Positions 25,006-60,058 of a DNA stretch of 64,000 bases are shown here, piece after piece; position 1 is the first letter of the stretch, and each line of letters starts with the position of its first letter. The position numbers were made by a program, and so were the translations under genes. The stretch lies in contig CAVQMO010000004.1 in the NCBI GenBank assembly GCA_963713605.1, positions 1 to 64,000 of the forward strand, written 5' to 3'. The notes beneath the pieces were generated by a model. It saw only the letters and a list, made by a program, of their open reading frames with translations, ran no database searches and was not told the origin of the DNA. The stretch is from an uncultured Nitrososphaerales archaeon (GTDB lineage Archaea > Thermoproteota > Nitrososphaeria > Nitrososphaerales > Nitrososphaeraceae).

Positions 25006-25057
25006 GATATCCATCTGTATCACCACAATAAGATGCCTCTTCTCATTCACTTGTTGT

Positions 25058-25082
25058 TATGTGTGGGACTTCTGGCACACAC
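25058..25082 (+). repeat. Dispersed copy of the 3' hairpin of the 56.9-57.5 kb repeat element
   Basis: TGTGTGGGACTTCTGGCACACAC is identical to 57226-57248. An upstream ATAAGATGCC resembles ATAAGGTGCC of that unit. Confidence 0.85.
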
Positions 25083-51353: not shown

Positions 51354-51947
51354 CCATCCAATATTTTTTTTGTTATTTTTGTTTCTCATTCATATCGCCA
51401 TGAGTCGTGTTTATCTGTCACATCAATTGAGGTAGGACCCACTTCACTTTCCTCCATCGGTTTATTCATCTCTTCATGTTCTTTATAGTTCCAATAATAG
51501 ATGTAATAGAAAATTGGATCATCTTCAATAACATTATTAATAATGATCCTATTTCTATGGAATCTGATGTAGCTATGATAGATAGAATGATAGGCGGAAA
51601 AGTATGAAGGTACTAGCTATATTTCAAAGCCAACAACTATGAAAGAATTAAATGAACATGTAGATCATTTGTTGCAGGAAAAATGTAACAGTTATAGAAT
51701 AGCTCTTGACCTGCCTGGTAGTAACTTGGCTGAAGTAAATAAGTAAATAGGCATGATTCCCCTTGCTATAACTCATCTGGTTTGAAGGAACGTTTAATTT
51801 CTCATACATGTCTAAATATATTCTAAATATCTCTCATAATGCTAAGAATAAGTATTACTCGGTGATGATAAGGGCTAATCTAATAGGTTTTCTATTGACA
51901 AAAATAAAAGGGGATGAAGTCAGTTTCAGTATTTCCGTGAATGCTAC

Positions 51948-52220
51948 TTACGGCACCAGTATATTGCCGATCTCTGGGAATGTTTGATCTGCTGCTAAGG
52001 CTACTCCGTTCTCGTCACCTTGAACCTGTGATCCAATGTTCTGACATCCGACGTTCAGCGGTAGTTCACCATTTCCACAAGCATTTGCTTGTGCGATCAC
52101 TTGGTTCTTCTCATATCTCTTCTTGCCATCTGCAAATGCACTGTCTGCTGTTGCAAGTGCTGTTGCTCCGACCAGCATGGCTGTCATTGCTGCTACGATT
52201 ACCAAATATTTGGTGTTCAT
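51948..52220 (-). CDS. Small secreted Gln/Asn/Gly-rich protein with two Cys
   Basis: Signal peptide ending in SAFA, then NQVIAQANACGNGELPLNVGCQNIGSQVQGDENGVAL. Confidence 0.75.
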   Translation of the reverse strand: MNTKYLVIVAAMTAMLVGATALATADSAFADGKKRYEKNQVIAQANACGNGELPLNVGCQNIGSQVQGDENGVALAADQTFPEIGNILVP

Positions 52221-52313
52221 AATTGGTATCAGAGTAGAAGTTTTGTATTTACATTAGGCAAGTTCAAACGCTCTCATAAATCTGATATTTTTTCTATTAG
52301 AACGAACGAGAAG

Positions 52314-52511
52314 CTAACGCATAGCCAAACTTTCTTCTTCAGACCATGCTCGTCTAAGAGGTATAATTTTTTTATTATCTTCATTCCACCATCTAATCAT
52401 GCCATTACATTTGCGGCATCGCAATTCTATTCTCGAACCGATTATCACAAATTTGGCTGTATTGGAATTAGTCATTAGCCGATCACAAATGCATTCTTTA
52501 GTCTGTGGCAT
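52314..52511 (-). CDS. Small zinc-ribbon-like protein
   Basis: CIC and CRKC motifs. Confidence 0.45.
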   Translation of the reverse strand: MPQTKECICDRLMTNSNTAKFVIIGSRIELRCRKCNGMIRWWNEDNKKIIPLRRAWSEEESLAMR

Positions 52512-53694: not shown

Positions 53695-54610
53695 GGTTCC
53701 AATACCATATTGTCTGCTCTAAATATAGCGATTGGCCCTGAATTAATAACTGTATTGTCTTTAGGCTTTCCGCAATGTGCACTATAGAATTCTGCATCAG
53801 GAGTACGTGCATACCAACCTCCACTATCCACAAAATCGGTAACCTTGTCCAATTTCCATCATTGTTGATATCAAGGTATGATTCCAACATCCTTGTAGCA
53901 GTTATGTTACCAATTTCTATATTATACATATCATCTCTTCTCAGTATAACTTCCGATCCACCAGATCGATTTCTTCCAACCGACAGTGCCATCAGGATGA
54001 AGGCCACCAAAATATGCTGTACCTTCGCTGGGTACCTCATCATTACGTTTTCCTTCACGTGAGTACCACTCCCCTCTAAGGAAGTTAATAGCATTCTAGT
54101 CCATGGGTAACGATTTCTTATGCGTAGACTGTGTTAATATCACTGGCGATTAATAACGACTTTGGAAGTATAGAAAAACCTAATTCTTCGAGTATACTTA
54201 TTAGCAAGCAGTGATATTCTAACCACTTTCACGCTCGGGTCATTGTTACTTAGACTAGTAACAGTAATAGATAGGTGTCATCGATAGAACTTGACGAGTT
54301 TTACTACAGGAATATGCTCTTCACAGTACTCGTAGCCAAGGTTATATTTGTAATTACATATAGGACATATCTTTATGTTCTTATCTTTATCCATAAGGGT
54401 CAGTTACGTCTTTATTCATAAAAGGTATTCCGGAACATGGTTATCTCAGATAAAGATAGGACGACCATGAATTGTAGCCGCGGCCGTAAATGTAAATAGT
54501 TTGTTCTGGCTCTAGTAATCCTTTACTTGATCCATATTTTTAGCTGGACTTTAATCTAACACGAAGCAACGTCAGAATCCTGATATCTAAGGAGATACAA
54601 TCGCTAATTT

Positions 54611-55067
54611 ATGAGCCTAGATAATTAGCAGGTATGTTGTCCCAGAAAAGTGGAGTTCAGCAGTCGATGGGCAGCACACAATAATGAGTGTTATAATTAG
54701 TTTCGTTGTTCAAAAGATGATGGGGCAAGGCATAAGCAATATGCTGTCAGGTGGAGGTGGCGAAGGCAACTTGGGGAGTATGCAATCAATGCTATTAGGT
54801 CTAGGAAGCTTGAATGGGGATCACGAATTAGTCAAACAGGTGCAGCAAAAGGCAGAAGTGCAAGATCCAGAACAAGCCAAGCAGTATACCCAACAAGGGG
54901 TAGACTTACTAAATGAACAATCCAGAAGTAATCCACAAGGAATACAATCTCTACTAGCTGGTTTTATGGGTGGTGGAAGTGGTTGTCAACAAGGTAAAGG
55001 CGGAGGTGGAGGCTTAGGTGGCATGATTGGAGACGTACTCGGGGATAGGATCTTTAGTTTTGAATAA
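54611..55067 (+). CDS. Gly/Gln-rich hypothetical protein (frameshifts near the 5' end)
   Basis: Low-complexity GGGLGGMIGDVLG tail, with an ATG at 54611 upstream of the listed ORF. Confidence 0.55.
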
Positions 55068-55294
55068 TGATAATACAAACTGATAGCAAAATCCGGGGTA
55101 GACGGCCATATATCTACGCACTATTCCAATGCTCGTCTACCTAATTCTTCTCATCTGGAACGAGTTTGGTCCGTCTGGCTTTTTAGTAAATGACCAAACG
55201 GATGAAAGTCCTATCTGATACTTCCATTAGATAACCAAGTTCCGGAACATCTTTTTATCTTAATGTTTTCTTAGACTATAAGTTCCTATGCGAA

Positions 55295-55334
55295 GGGCGG
55301 CCAGAATCTGAGTTGTTCAATGACCTGGCCGCCC
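55295..55334. repeat. GC-rich hairpin GGGCGGCCAG-N20-CTGGCCGCCC with a degenerate copy at about 55434-55479
   Basis: Perfect 10-bp stem. The second copy shares ATGCG(G)AAGG...TGGCCGYCTACCT. Confidence 0.75.
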
Positions 55335-55551
55335 TACCTTTCTAGTCACCATATTATAAAATGTAGTACATTAGACTACAGGCAGCTGGAGTCTTTAAAT
55401 CATTTAAAGAACTAAACTGTCTGTCATGCGGAAGGTGGCGATCAAATTGGGCTTCACAACAACAATTGGCCGTCTACCTGATCTAATAACTATCAAAATT
55501 ATTTTTCTCTAGGTCCAAGAGATTCTTCTTCCAAAATTTGGGATTTGAGTC

Positions 55552-55719
55552 TTACTTCTGTTTCAAACGTTCTCTTATAGAAAACGCCTCAGCGAAGAAG
55601 TTAGTTGAGAGTGGAGGAGATGCTACATTCATATCTTCGTGAGCTACACCGATCTTCTGCACACCGTGCTTTACTCTTGTTGCCTTATTAACACCTGCTC
55701 CAAATACGTATACTTTCAT
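55552..55719 (-). pseudogene. N-terminal remnant of a SIR2-like domain gene
   Basis: MKVYVFGAGVNK...SPPLSTNFF...KQK*. A beta strand followed by GAG and PPLxxxFF is typical of SIR2-like N-termini. Confidence 0.5.
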
Positions 55720-55829
55720 ATTATTGAGGAGAATAAGTTTCGCGTGTAAAATTACCTATAGTATCTTCACAGATGCCCTAATTCAAATGATGTTAAAAGT
55801 AATACTCTAATACATGGATACAAAGGCCG

Positions 55830-56456
55830 TCATCTCTTTTTTGAGTTTTTTAATACTACGAATAATGCAGCAGGTAACGGATCTAAGGTGCCTTGATACA
55901 CCGTGTCCTTAATTTTTATGACTTTAAACGACTCTTTCTCGAATATTTCGCTTATCTTCTTCTTAGAAAACCTGTATGGTCCCCCTTCTCTTTTTTCATT
56001 AATACTAAAACATTTTAGGAACAGTATGTCATCCTCTTTGAGGATCCTTTTTATTTGCTTGACATATGTTAGCCTGTCTGAAGGATGTAGAACATGAAAA
56101 CATCCACGATCAAATATGTAATCGTATTCATCCTCCTTGAAATTAGAATGCAGAATATTATCGACCACAAAGCTGACATTCGGTTCGCTACCGTAAACCT
56201 CTTTTGCTCTATGAATTGCAGCTTGAGAAATATCTGAACCTGTCACCAAGTGTCCTTTCCTAGCAATCTGTACAGCTTGAGTAGCCGGACCTGTGCCAAG
56301 ATCAAGAAATCTCCCTTTGTGGAGAGCTTTTTGTTTCGATATCTCCTCTTCCAAATCAGAATCTAGTTTCTCATTGTACCATGGCATAGTTTCCACTTGC
56401 TGATTCTTATACATACTATCCCACTCCGGAAAACCTCTGGAATTGCTATCTATCAC
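55830..56456 (-). CDS. Class I SAM-dependent methyltransferase (TPMT/TehB-like)
   Basis: MPWY, FLDLGTGP, IFDRGCFH, LKCFS. Confidence 0.88.
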   Translation of the reverse strand: MIDSNSRGFPEWDSMYKNQQVETMPWYNEKLDSDLEEEISKQKALHKGRFLDLGTGPATQAVQIARKGHLVTGSDISQAAIHRAKEVYGSEPNVSFVVDNILHSNFKEDEYDYIFDRGCFHVLHPSDRLTYVKQIKRILKEDDILFLKCFSINEKREGGPYRFSKKKISEIFEKESFKVIKIKDTVYQGTLDPLPAALFVVLKNSKKR

Positions 56457-56909
56457 TCGATGTGATTCTATTCATTAGTCTAATTTGTACCTATAGTAGT
56501 TAGAATTTCTGATTCCAGCCTACTGCCATTCAAAAGGTTTGTTTCATAAGAGAAAACTCGTATGCAAATTGGTATGATTATTGTCTTGATAGTAGTAAAA
56601 TAAGCCTATCATGCCAAGTCATAATATTTGTTCGTGTGGTCCGTGAGAACTGAGTTTTTTCTGCTACTCTCGTCATTGTCTCTCAATCTCAATCTAAGGT
56701 TTGAGAAATAAAGAAACTCCTATAACAAACTGTGGCTATAGTAGTCATGCTGCCATACCCGTATAGCAGCCAATCATCCTCGCAAGTTGACTAGTAGCCC
56801 AGTACTCCTACTGTCATAAACCCACTTGCATTGTAGGCATGCATAGTGACGGTAGATGGGACCTTTCAGCTTACGAGGAAGGTAGGAAAACAAAACAGAC
56901 AAAAAACGG

Positions 56910-57506
56910 AGACACGTCCAGGGACAAGTTCTTCCGGGGGAAATTAATCCCATCGGTTGATTGTACAGAATAAGGTGCGTGGGATCCCTGGCACGCGCAC
57001 AATTTCGTTATCAACACTATTTCTTAAGGTGTGAGTACGGTAAAAAAAGGAATCTAGAAGTGAATAATTCGACCTCTCCTATTCTTTCATTCTCTATATT
57101 TGAAAATCGTAGCTACGGATATAAACCATGGAGACATATGTACTACTACAAGTAAGCATCTTCCAGGAGAATCGTAGAATCGTGCCATCTACCATAAGGT
57201 GCCGAAATGGTTTCATCTTACACTGTGTGTGGGACTTCTGGCACACACACCTTTTTGTGATTATCTAACAGATAATGGGAACGATATTCTAAAGATGAAT
57301 AATTTAAAGTTGAATGAACCGACTCAGCAATGGATTGACATTCTCGTTCTCAATAATAGTAAAAAGTAGCTACGAATATAAATCCTGCAGCAAAACATAG
57401 GAATGCAAAGGGCATCTGCCAGGAGAATATTGCATCAGCAACCGGTTATCTGATGTCTTTTTGGCTGTACATTTTGCATGTGTGTGGGACTCCTGGCGCA
57501 CACATG
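56910..57506 (+). ncRNA. Tandem array of three putative pseudoknotted ncRNA units (period ~250 bp)
   Basis: Conserved 3' hairpins at 56975-57000, 57224-57249 and 57477-57506. Their loops are complementary to upstream CCAGGGA/CCAGGAG. Compensatory and G.U pairs occur, and TATA-like ATATAAA precedes two units. Confidence 0.6.
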
Positions 57507-58147
57507 AATATATAATTTTCAATGGGACAAGAAAAACGTTAAGAATTGTTTAGCATACAAAACACTTACAGATAAGCATTCTCAATAATAGGAAAACGAA
57601 ATTTTATTTTCTCATGATGAGGCAAGTCTATCTCTTTCTTACCGAACTCATACTCATCAAGCTATCAGCATGCGAGACAACGAGAGGGCTAGGTTTGGAC
57701 TTCTATCCTTTTATGATTGAAATATGGCCTAGATTCAAGCCTTTGCTTACTAGGTTATTACTAGTGATAATAGTAATCAAAGCTTGAACCTTGTAATCAC
57801 TAATACTGCGATACAATTTATTTGTGTTCACATGACTATTATGTCGTCGAGTGTATTGGTGATGACTGTATATGCTATCGGCTTCTTACTTGCATTCTAT
57901 GCCCTTTTTGAAGTCAAAGTCATATATTAGTTGCAATTAATACTTGAGCCAGGGGATAACGTTATCATAGATTGGTGAAAGACTATTCCACTCTCGTCGA
58001 ACCAGTTTATCATATACGAAACGCTAATTGTTACTCCTCTATAATACGGAGCAATATAGCGAAAATGTAATGGTCGCATAATATCATCACACCTTTAAGA
58101 AATGAAAGGTGTAAATCCCCGAAAATACTAAAAATTTTATAGGAATT

Positions 58148-59420
58148 ATGAGTTTCAGAGCAAAAGAAGAAAGCCATTTTAGTCATAAGAAATCAAGACA
58201 AACAGAAAATGTGCTTGTGTTGCAAGGAGGGGGTTCTCTAGGAGCATTTGCGTGTGGTGTATTCAAAGCTTTGGTAAAAAAGAAAATAAGAATAGATATA
58301 GTCGCTGGCACATCCATGGGAGCCATTAATGGAGCTATAATTGTAGGAAGTAAAAGTGACCGTCCTGAGAATGACCTTGAAGAGTTTTGGTTAGAGATTG
58401 CAGAGAGCAATTATAAGATGATTCCCGATATCTATCTGATCGATTACGATATCCATAATCAGAGATATATACCAAAGCAAATATCTTCTGCTTCAGCCAA
58501 TGCTGCAATATTCGGAGTTCCAAAGGTGTTTATTCCAAGATGGTTGAAGCTACAACCTACTAAGCAGGAAGTATTGCCAGATGGCGTAGACTACGGACAA
58601 CGACCACCGCCGTATTTTGCTGACCCACGGGAGTGGACTTATCTATACGACCATTCGCCACTTGTAAAGACACTTGACAAATACATAGATTACAGCAAGA
58701 TTAATCTGGCCGCAACTAAAGAAGAGCTACCAGAAGTCCTTCGACTTATAATAACCTCAGTAGATGTCATGACTTCTAGACCACTTATATTCGATAATAC
58801 CAAAATGGAAATCAAAGCAAAACACATTCTAGCAAGCTCTGGCTATCCCATATATGGATTTCCTTGGATTGAGGTTGAAAAGGGAGTTTATGGATGGGAT
58901 GGTAGTCTGCTTAGCAATACCCCGGTAAGAGAAGTGACTTTCTGCATCCCCACGAAATGACAAAAATATCTTTATTGTAGAAAATTATACTCGAAATATT
59001 CACAGACTTCCTTCTAATATGGCAGAAGTTGAAAGTAGAGCTAAAGACATACTCTTTTCTGATAAGAATATGGACAATATCAAAATGTCTAGACTTATTA
59101 CCAGACAAATTCAACTGATAGAACGACTTTATGAAGTCTTTGATAAGCTAGTGGACCATTCAAGGCTCGATGCTAAAGAGGTAGAAAGGATAAAGGAAGA
59201 GTACAATACACTAATAGAAAACTATGGCGCAGTCATAAGATCAGTCACAAGAATAGTTAGAACCGACCTTGAATCTCCTTCCATATTACAGAATGCAGAT
59301 TTTTCTCTCAAGACAATTAAAGAGCTGAATAGGTACAAGGTGAGAGAAAAACACTCGAAGAAGTGGCATATTGTGATAATATACAGTATCAGTTTTAACA
59401 AAACAAAATGCTTCTCATAG
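58148..59420 (+). CDS. Patatin-like phospholipase with DUF3734-like C-terminus (frameshifts near 58940 and 59330)
   Basis: LQGGGSLG, GTSMG and WDGSLLSNTP, with ADFS near the C-terminus. Confidence 0.88.
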
Positions 59421-60058
59421 AAGTTTGGAATCCCCTATATAATTGCTGATGGTGGAGAGACATTTGGTAACTAAAGCAGAATAGTAACTTTATAAAAAGT
59501 AGGTAGGGCAGCCGTTGAGAGGATATAACACTTACAGCGGCTTATTACCACTACCCACTTATAAGAGTCTTATTATGGACACCTTGCATTAGTAATATCC
59601 AGGTTAAATAATTTTTTATAGGACAGGCAAGCAGACAACCTACCTGCCGTGTTGTTCTACTTGTATGAGGGTAGTCCAGTTATGGACATTCATAATAAAT
59701 ACCCGTTTTATTAATTTATTGAAACGATCTTCACTGATCTTCATTACTTCTTTGCAGGACTCGCAAAACATATGCTCGTAGGAAGATTCTATTATATGGC
59801 TATTTAATCTCTATGACAACGGAAGACCAGATGACTCCAGTAGTCAGTGTAACTGAAGGTCATCGTTTTCATAGGTTTTAAAGGATTGAGAATTAATAAA
59901 TATATATTTTGATATTCTTACTTATATTTATAATAAATTTATGAGATATACATTGCTATTATACTCGGTCATGCATTCAAGGTCAAAACAAACAAAATAT
60001 TATCCATAACTATGTTTTTATGTCCTTTAATAGTTTCTATTGAAGGTAAAGGATTCGA

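Follow-up and report, generated by a model that had tools for sequence, protein, structure and literature searches.

A probable lineage-restricted family of individually promoted, pseudoknotted non-coding RNAs in ammonia-oxidising archaea

Introduction

CsrB/RsmZ, CrcZ and 6S are bacterial multicopy small RNAs that titrate proteins. A different kind of compact RNA is the ZTP (pfl) aptamer, which, according to 10.1101/521930, consists of a P1 helix, a junction that forms a pseudoknot, a P2 helix, a linker of variable length and a small P3 hairpin. The locus described here lies in a window of 64,000 nucleotides, the whole stretch of DNA that was analysed, from the genome of an uncultured Nitrososphaerales archaeon (G000). 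A first-pass annotation of the window had proposed a tandem array of three ~100-nt RNAs with a fixed fold, variable interiors and promoters of their own. Comparison with homologs supports the core of this proposal, namely individually promoted, pseudoknotted non-coding RNAs of the + strand that belong to no catalogued family, and very likely these are true genes of one non-coding RNA family, regardless of the role that it plays. This lineage-restricted family is real and apparently undescribed; its structure is supported, its expression weakly so. No description of the RNA was found in the literature, in which large motif catalogues (PMC5737381, PMC8040213) could hold an unnamed version, and no small structured RNAs of these archaea beyond the content of Rfam were found described.

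The array and its setting

The array is flanked on one side by a − strand methyltransferase gene, and a patatin-domain gene follows 646 nt downstream; its features are collected in Table 1. A string check located all of the reported hairpin strings at 56975, 57224 and 57477, and the pseudoknot strands at 56918, 57163 and 57419, the P1 strands at 57156/57196 and 57411/57452, and the leaders at 57109 and 57366, with a fourth leader fragment at 57578, were likewise confirmed. The units are spaced 250 and 255 nt apart. Three units are thus present as described, but the tandem array is just one arrangement among many dispersed copies, and the three RNAs are not all of ~100 nt: unit 1 is the 3′ end of a long form of ~250 nt, and only units 2 and 3, the short form, have the proposed length.

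The ORFs that overlap the units encode 50–64 aa in the ORF list of the window. The view that the region holds no credible coding sequence is borne out by the homologs, in which the ORFs overlapping the long form are unconserved in frame or sequence, and the short-form copies differ in length by numbers that are not multiples of 3, which argues against a conserved reading frame. A known family was also absent from the proposed Rfam search, which returned nothing at E ≤ 5 for 55000–60000 and nothing at E ≤ 2 for 10 homolog loci. Taken one by one, the units give no significant folding signal (z −0.07 to −1.75, with a program that cannot form pseudoknots), so the case for a structured RNA rests on the homologs.

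The 270-aa patatin-domain ORF downstream (58148–58960) is closely followed by a 133-aa ORF (59019–59420), and because a homolog in L063 spans 563 aa, the two may be a single gene in two pieces. On the other flank, a 27-nt inverted repeat (54420–54446 and 55229–55255, 89% complementary) encloses 782 nt with a 127-aa glycine-rich ORF; this may be a small unit that moves or can invert.

Table 1. Positions of the RNA forms, their helices and their promoter elements in the window
Feature	Position	Strand	Evidence or remark
Inverted repeat upstream of long form, putative operator-like (imperfect)	56687..56706	+	Homolog comparison
Long-form TATA-like element, weak	56720..56726	+	Spacing to RNA differs among subtypes
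Long-form RNA, ~250 nt (unit 1 is its 3′ domain)	56749..56999	+	Homologs and RNA-library contigs
Long-form 5′ hairpin, C-rich loop	56749..56770	+	Paired in 91.5% of cells (10 sequences); two-sided changes absent
Long irregular hairpin	56777..56879	+	Predicted fold
Central helix of irregular hairpin	56808-56817 with 56846-56855	+	Two-sided change in 2/10 pairs, 82.7% paired
A/C-rich linker, candidate protein-binding tract	56886..56907	+	Unpaired in predicted fold
Long-form pseudoknot 5′ strand	56918..56924	+	Pairs with 56985-56991
Long-form 3′ hairpin P3, 10-nt loop	56975..56998	+	
Promoter of short-form copy 2 (upstream repeat, palindromic core, TATA box)	57088..57125	+	Profile score
Short-form RNA copy 2	57148..57249	+	R1 92.7 bits (copy itself in model)
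Copy 2 P1	57156-57162/57196-57202	+	
Copy 2 pseudoknot	57163-57169/57235-57241	+	
Copy 2 P2	57174-57192	+	
Copy 2 P3	57224-57249	+	
Promoter of short-form copy 3	57344..57382	+	Repeat comparison and promoter profile
Short-form RNA copy 3	57404..57506	+	R1 82.6 bits (copy itself in model)
Copy 3 P1	57411-57416/57452-57457	+	
Copy 3 pseudoknot	57419-57425/57490-57496	+	
Copy 3 P3	57477-57506	+	
Fourth promoter fragment	57578..57596	+	No TATA box; no RNA body after it
3′-only remnant (P1 3′ strand, linker, P3)	25019..25082	+	R1 31.1 bits

Structure of the two RNA forms

The two forms share their 3′ module: a terminal hairpin whose loop forms a pseudoknot with a 7-nt strand lying upstream. The chance of finding a 7-nt loop complement within a 25-nt window is 0.3–0.9% per unit, the units being homologous and not independent. 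For unit 1 an alternative pseudoknot partner exists at 56934; of the two, the 56918-type strand alone is retained in the homolog L219, which speaks for the original choice of 56918. The short form is arranged as P1, the adjoining 7-nt pseudoknot strand, the trinucleotide AAU, a variable P2, the 3′ strand of P1, a linker and P3, whose loop has 10 nt, the last 7 of which pair back to the pseudoknot strand.

In an alignment of 18 short-form sequences, 90.2% of the cells are paired. The further helix that had been noticed in units 2 and 3, here P1, is supported by two-sided changes in 7 of its 12 pairs. Over the whole short-form structure, 17 two-sided cells compare with 6.5 in shuffled alignments, and none of 500 shuffles reaches 17, a control that related sequences can exceed. 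Within the same 18 sequences, two-sided changes occur in none of the seven pseudoknot pairs and none of the eight P3 pairs. Between the two forms, pseudoknot pairs 6 and 7 exchange A-U/G-C for G-C/A-U, and P3 pair 4 changes from U-A to C-G and is flipped in one long form; these between-form changes are the best evidence for the pseudoknot, though they comprise only a few events. The statement that both sides of the pseudoknot change together therefore holds for unit 1 against units 2 and 3, but units 2 and 3 differ from each other on one side only, G.U becoming G-C. An A.C mismatch is found at pseudoknot pair 6 in 4 of 12 short-form types. The suggestion that G.U pairs point to a + strand RNA is upheld by 39 short-form copies, in which G.U pairs outnumber A.C mismatches by 64 to 19 on the + strand. 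In the scoring of P1 among these copies, three rows with a misplaced P1 3′ strand were excluded; the same rows were retained in the interior-similarity correlations below.

The unpaired residues of the short form are conserved in part: the short AAU tract after the pseudoknot strand and the loop A are kept, and the loop GG is replaced by AA or AG, or is shortened, in some copies. P2 reaches 60–90 nt in some copies and folds in many of them despite differing sequences (median z −1.42, with 19 of 39 below −1.5). At the end of the same winged-helix gene, the P3 loop lies in opposite orientations in L113 (1580–1640) and L232, as if it had been inverted within its own stem.

Unit 1 has neither the short-form promoter nor P1. 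Long-form homologs are found in G332, G348, G344, G260 and G319, and in G357 independently of the model; in G332, G348, G344 and G319, as at the window locus, the long form precedes short copies. Structural support for the long-form 5′ domain can be considered moderate, as judged from the alignment: 6 of its 37 pairs show two-sided changes and 80.3% of cells are paired, on a structure taken from the window copy, which is a favourable bias. The linker is A-rich in the homologs. The G260-type long copies lack P3, fold differently and do not form the central helix. The G260 assembly, which is marked unpublished, supplies three of the 18 short-form alignment rows (L017, L059 and L065), including some of the two-sided changes in P1, one of the 10 long-form rows (L236), one carrier in the genus counts, several rows of the promoter-spacing, interior-similarity, P2-folding and downstream-ORF analyses, and the second genome for a copy beside an iron-dependent repressor gene.

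Promoters

The TATA-like motif recognised before units 2 and 3 proves to belong to a TATA promoter that is specific to the family and lies at a nearly constant distance from the RNA. The short-form promoter profile scores 27–42 bits at the four complete copies of G000 and at most 16.6 bits elsewhere in that genome. The distance from the TATA box to P1 is 27–32 nt in 41 of 43 true copies, with a spacer of variable sequence, in a search over 24–40 nt from which 11 of 54 rows were removed by eye as spurious. The usual geometry of archaeal promoters would put the start of the short form on the first strand of an extended P1. A fourth leader, reported near 57579, exists as a fragment, but neither a TATA box nor an RNA body follows it. 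In L175 (1030–1160), a short-form promoter leads straight into P3, the RNA body being deleted.

The inverted repeat ahead of the long form also precedes 11 long-form homologs, in somewhat varied form, and its combination with a TATA-like element has no second site in G000. Neither promoter motif was found ahead of other genes, as would be seen in a regulon.

Distribution, duplication and decay

The covariance model and the search of Nitrososphaerales genomes suggested in the first-pass annotation recovered a multicopy family. The model, R1, was built from 18 short copies; under strict filters it matched 8 of 150 genomes of the taxonomic family, all within the genus of the window, and none of the 136 genomes of other genera. 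Under laxer filters, 9 of the 14 genomes of the genus are positive, with 1–13 matches apiece, seven of these nine carriers contributing sequences to R1; the RNA was not found in the other five, two of which are 97% complete. A pattern scan across GTDB, with one genome per species, gave 41 loci, of which nine, in records titled Nitrososphaeraceae or Nitrososphaerales, score 68–92 bits; the other 32, at 18.7 bits or less, were rejected. Metagenome contigs hold at least 30 loci at 29 bits or more among the 118 matches listed, and most of the other metagenome loci inspected among these matches are GC-rich coding matches. Three patterns run against viral contigs gave 0, 1 and 0 loci, the single one being rejected at 9.9 bits inside a long open frame, and phage and plasmid records gave no match. 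Among 238 genomes, a relaxed pattern matched 13 of other genera, all with stems of 3–5 bp and at most 11.4 bits, and these were rejected, as were the single match from another family, which sits inside a 626-aa ORF, and, by eye, five of six weak long-form matches (the sixth is L262). Among the genomes searched, the family thus seems confined to some members of a single genus of ammonia-oxidising archaea.

Besides the window copies, G000 carries two complete short copies (C1:556094 and C3:212523), a 5′-only remnant near C1:203386, and the 3′-only remnant of Table 1, which begins ~17 nt past a stop codon; the 740-aa ORF that ends there resembles, from its appearance, a CDC48-type ATPase. The C1 copies at 556094 and 203386 each lie ~5 kb from a tRNA gene (tRNA-Lys 551042 and tRNA-Ser 208097), a proximity that may be due to chance, most tRNAs being on C1. 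A short-form subtype with a 9-nt loop (L056:2990–3707, L220 and L059) is convergent with an iron-dependent repressor gene in G319 and G260; this gene belongs to a cluster with a ZIP transporter and a multicopper oxidase, and no copy follows its ortholog in G000 (C15).

The copied unit consists of promoter and body, and similarity drops soon after P3 (3′ flank rho 0.07). Since the two are copied together, duplication occurred at the DNA level, and the copying of an untranscribed promoter excludes retrotransposition. Among the matches listed for 40 loci against G000, there is no clean empty site with fixed ends and no target duplication. Truncated copies, whether 3′-only, 5′-only or internally deleted, are common, and 3′-only copies follow gene ends. 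As much as 33% of the window is homologous to other places in G000; in so repetitive a genome, and with truncated copies so common, copy number alone shows neither selection nor mobility, and being multicopy would not make this family special.

Elsewhere in the window, small secreted-looking ORFs at 51750–52500 have up to 29 matches in the genome. Two copies with a long P2 (L067 and L069) have DNA methylase genes in their vicinity, together with unannotated ORFs, pieces of which are repeated across G000 (C10, C12 and C3); these surroundings are possibly relics of an integrative element.

Expression

Contigs from RNA libraries were compared over 56300–57900 in four libraries of four studies, drawn from 24 runs that had been retrieved with this stretch. 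Six contigs (56785–56992, 56761–56866, 56763–56866, 56837–57041, 56768–56990 and 56758–56937) align with no loose ends, all inside 56758–57041 and in all four libraries, which come from soil and rhizosphere, and two of them stop at 56990–56992. Their limits fit the predicted long form, the contigs showing presence only and not strand, ends or level. Close relatives share DNA as far as ~57370 at 89–91% identity. These contigs give a weak hint of a discrete long-form transcript, weak because they carry no strand, ends or level, because the runs were found with the stretch itself and because the comparison covered RNA runs only. No contig covers units 2 and 3 in the four libraries, which is uninformative, as ~100-nt RNAs are easily lost and contigs record presence only.

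Possible functions

The most likely way of working is neither by pairing with targets nor by switching a neighbour. Our tentative main reading, at a probability of roughly 0.4, is that each locus is a free-standing gene whose product, a stable structured RNA, acts by its shape, titrating or scaffolding a putative bound protein. Their own promoter and their lack of both an ORF and a linked target all fit a protein-titrating small RNA. Transcription would start at the first P1 strand in the short form, or at the 5′ hairpin in the long form, and end just past P3. The pseudoknot and P3 would stack as one helix of 14–15 bp, locking the 3′ end against exonuclease and tying it to the 5′ domain, and in the short form the 5′ end would be base-paired as well. 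A protein may recognise the pseudoknot and P3 through their nearly invariant sequence, and may find a second site in the long form's A-rich linker; an Lsm-type protein can be named as partner only as a guess. Copies would arise through duplication of promoter and body as DNA and would often decay. The protein-decoy role rests on exclusion, no partner, target or phenotype having been found, and the patchy presence of the family within the genus counts against it, as do the absence of two-sided changes from pseudoknot and P3 within the short form, the A.C mismatches at pair 6 and the many truncated copies.

A possible but unlikely alternative is that the long form is the one functional RNA, and that the short forms are mostly neutral products of the general duplication and deletion in this lineage. 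It draws on the repetitiveness of G000, the frequency of truncated and internally deleted copies and the same patchy presence in the genus. Against it stand the two-sided changes that keep P1, the P2 stem maintained with differing sequences and the preserved promoter spacing, which together indicate selection on the short forms, at least formerly. It is more doubtful still that the family represents a new archaeal RNA class whose 3′ pseudoknot serves as a portable module for exchangeable 5′ cargo domains, seen as the long form, the short form and the variants with extended P2, and which works either as a ribonucleoprotein scaffold or as a free aptamer; if so, a riboswitch-like fold would exist that has no gene to switch and is expressed from its own regulated promoters.

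A free, trans-acting aptamer similar to ZTP, with a binding site for a metabolite or metal where pseudoknot, P1 and P3 meet, is improbable. The likeness to ZTP that had been noticed is borne out by the architecture of the short form, whose elements follow the order given for the aptamer (10.1101/521930), and the conserved AAU tract and loop A would suit such an aptamer, but no ZTP or other Rfam model matches, the loop GG varies, the long form has no P1, and neither an expression platform nor a consistent downstream gene is found. A cis-acting riboswitch, which had also been considered, is contradicted by the downstream regions of 24 loci, where a same-strand ORF lies within 400 nt at just 3; at 10 the ORF is convergent, at 10 there is none within 400 nt, and one ends with its contig. 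The search for a co-occurring protein at homologous loci likewise gave none, as 91 scanned neighbouring proteins revealed no consistent neighbour or theme.

Base-pairing guide or antisense RNAs, with targets set by the variable interiors or 3′ flanks, are less probable again. A fixed scaffold with a variable interior and 3′ flank, several paralogs per genome and the C-rich loops of the long form would suit such RNAs, but the supposedly guide-like interiors turn out to be homologous, often fold as P2 and diverge together with the untranscribed promoter spacer: their similarity exceeds that of shuffles and tracks the spacer with rho 0.36–0.55, over pairs that are not independent. The longest contiguous antisense matches, 9–11 nt to the stable RNAs (rRNA and tRNA) and 11–12 nt to 2778 start regions, are no better than those of shuffles, and the five 3′ flanks in G000 have no common adjacent motif. 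TnpB (PF07282), IS110 (PF01548) and Ro60 (TROVE, PF05731) domains are absent from G000, which is 87% complete, and the short-form promoter spacing would leave no room for a 5′ guide of the IscB omega RNA type.

A self-cleaving or other small ribozyme is very improbable: the RNA is compact, multicopy and pseudoknotted, with few conserved unpaired residues, and the order of its strands recalls that of a pistol ribozyme after circular permutation, but no Rfam ribozyme matches, the conserved junction residues differ between the forms, and single RNA-library contigs run unbroken over 56785–56990 in two runs. Least probable of all is a non-autonomous mobile element with the hairpin as its DNA or RNA recognition end, for which the dispersal of copies in unrelated contexts, the loss of similarity after P3, the 3′-only copies after gene ends and eight tyrosine-recombinase matches in G000 could be cited; against it, each copy comprises the promoter as well as the body, the matches listed show neither a clean empty site nor a target duplication, and the enzymes of retro-, IS200/605- and IS110-type elements were not found in carriers, reverse transcriptase (RVT_1, PF00078) occurring in 0 of 14 and Y1 transposase (PF01797) in 1 of 14 genomes of the genus, a non-carrier, these assemblies being incomplete.

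Whichever reading holds, the family is a concrete RNA that can be probed; it comes in two forms, has promoters of its own and, in RNA libraries from soil and rhizosphere, shows a hint of expression. Should it prove to bind a protein or a metabolite, an RNA-based layer of control would come to light in a lineage of ammonia oxidisers, together with an example of the birth, multiplication and decay of an RNA family inside part of one genus; the narrow range limits its general importance.

Comparison with known RNA systems

Identity with RNase P RNA or SRP RNA was rejected, as both are present elsewhere, on C1; a Y RNA was rejected because the Ro60 partner is absent from G000, and a retron, DRT or SINE-type RNA because no reverse transcriptase was found in the 14 genomes of the genus. 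Among described systems, the ZTP (pfl) aptamer shares its element order with the short form only (10.1101/521930). The ZTP riboswitch binds ZMP/ZTP and sits, with an expression platform, in the leaders of purine or one-carbon genes. In contrast, the family is archaeal, has its own promoter, and has neither a regulated downstream gene nor an Rfam match, its pseudoknot starts directly after P1, and the long form has no P1 at all; membership in the ZTP class was rejected on the missing Rfam match and regulated gene, although the short form fits its architecture.

In the pistol and other small ribozymes, as in this family, a hairpin loop pairs with a distant strand beside a helix–junction–helix. 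The family differs from them in its own promoter and in junction residues that vary between the forms, and a known self-cleaving ribozyme was rejected because no Rfam model matched. TnpB/IscB omega RNAs and IS110 bridge RNAs likewise combine a conserved scaffold with variable segments in multiple copies. An omega RNA or IS200-IS605 end was rejected, given no TnpB in G000, no Y1 in carriers and neither a target nor an adjacent motif, and a bridge or seek RNA was rejected given the absence of the IS110 recombinase from G000. Archaeal H/ACA guide RNAs are also small archaeal RNAs with an ACA near the 3′ end, whereas here the ACA lies inside P3 and there is no excess of antisense matches to rRNA or tRNA; an H/ACA guide, which has a nested hairpin with a pocket, a K-turn and a free ACA tail, or a C/D guide was rejected because its lower stem would be crossed by the covarying P1 and the consensus, inspected by eye, has no such boxes.

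The protein-titrating RNAs CsrB/RsmZ, CrcZ and 6S differ from the family in that they match it neither in sequence nor by any model, and the family has no repeated binding motif and ends in a terminal pseudoknot. In common with them, it is stand-alone, separately promoted and structured, has several paralogs and, in its long form, carries an A-rich unpaired tract.
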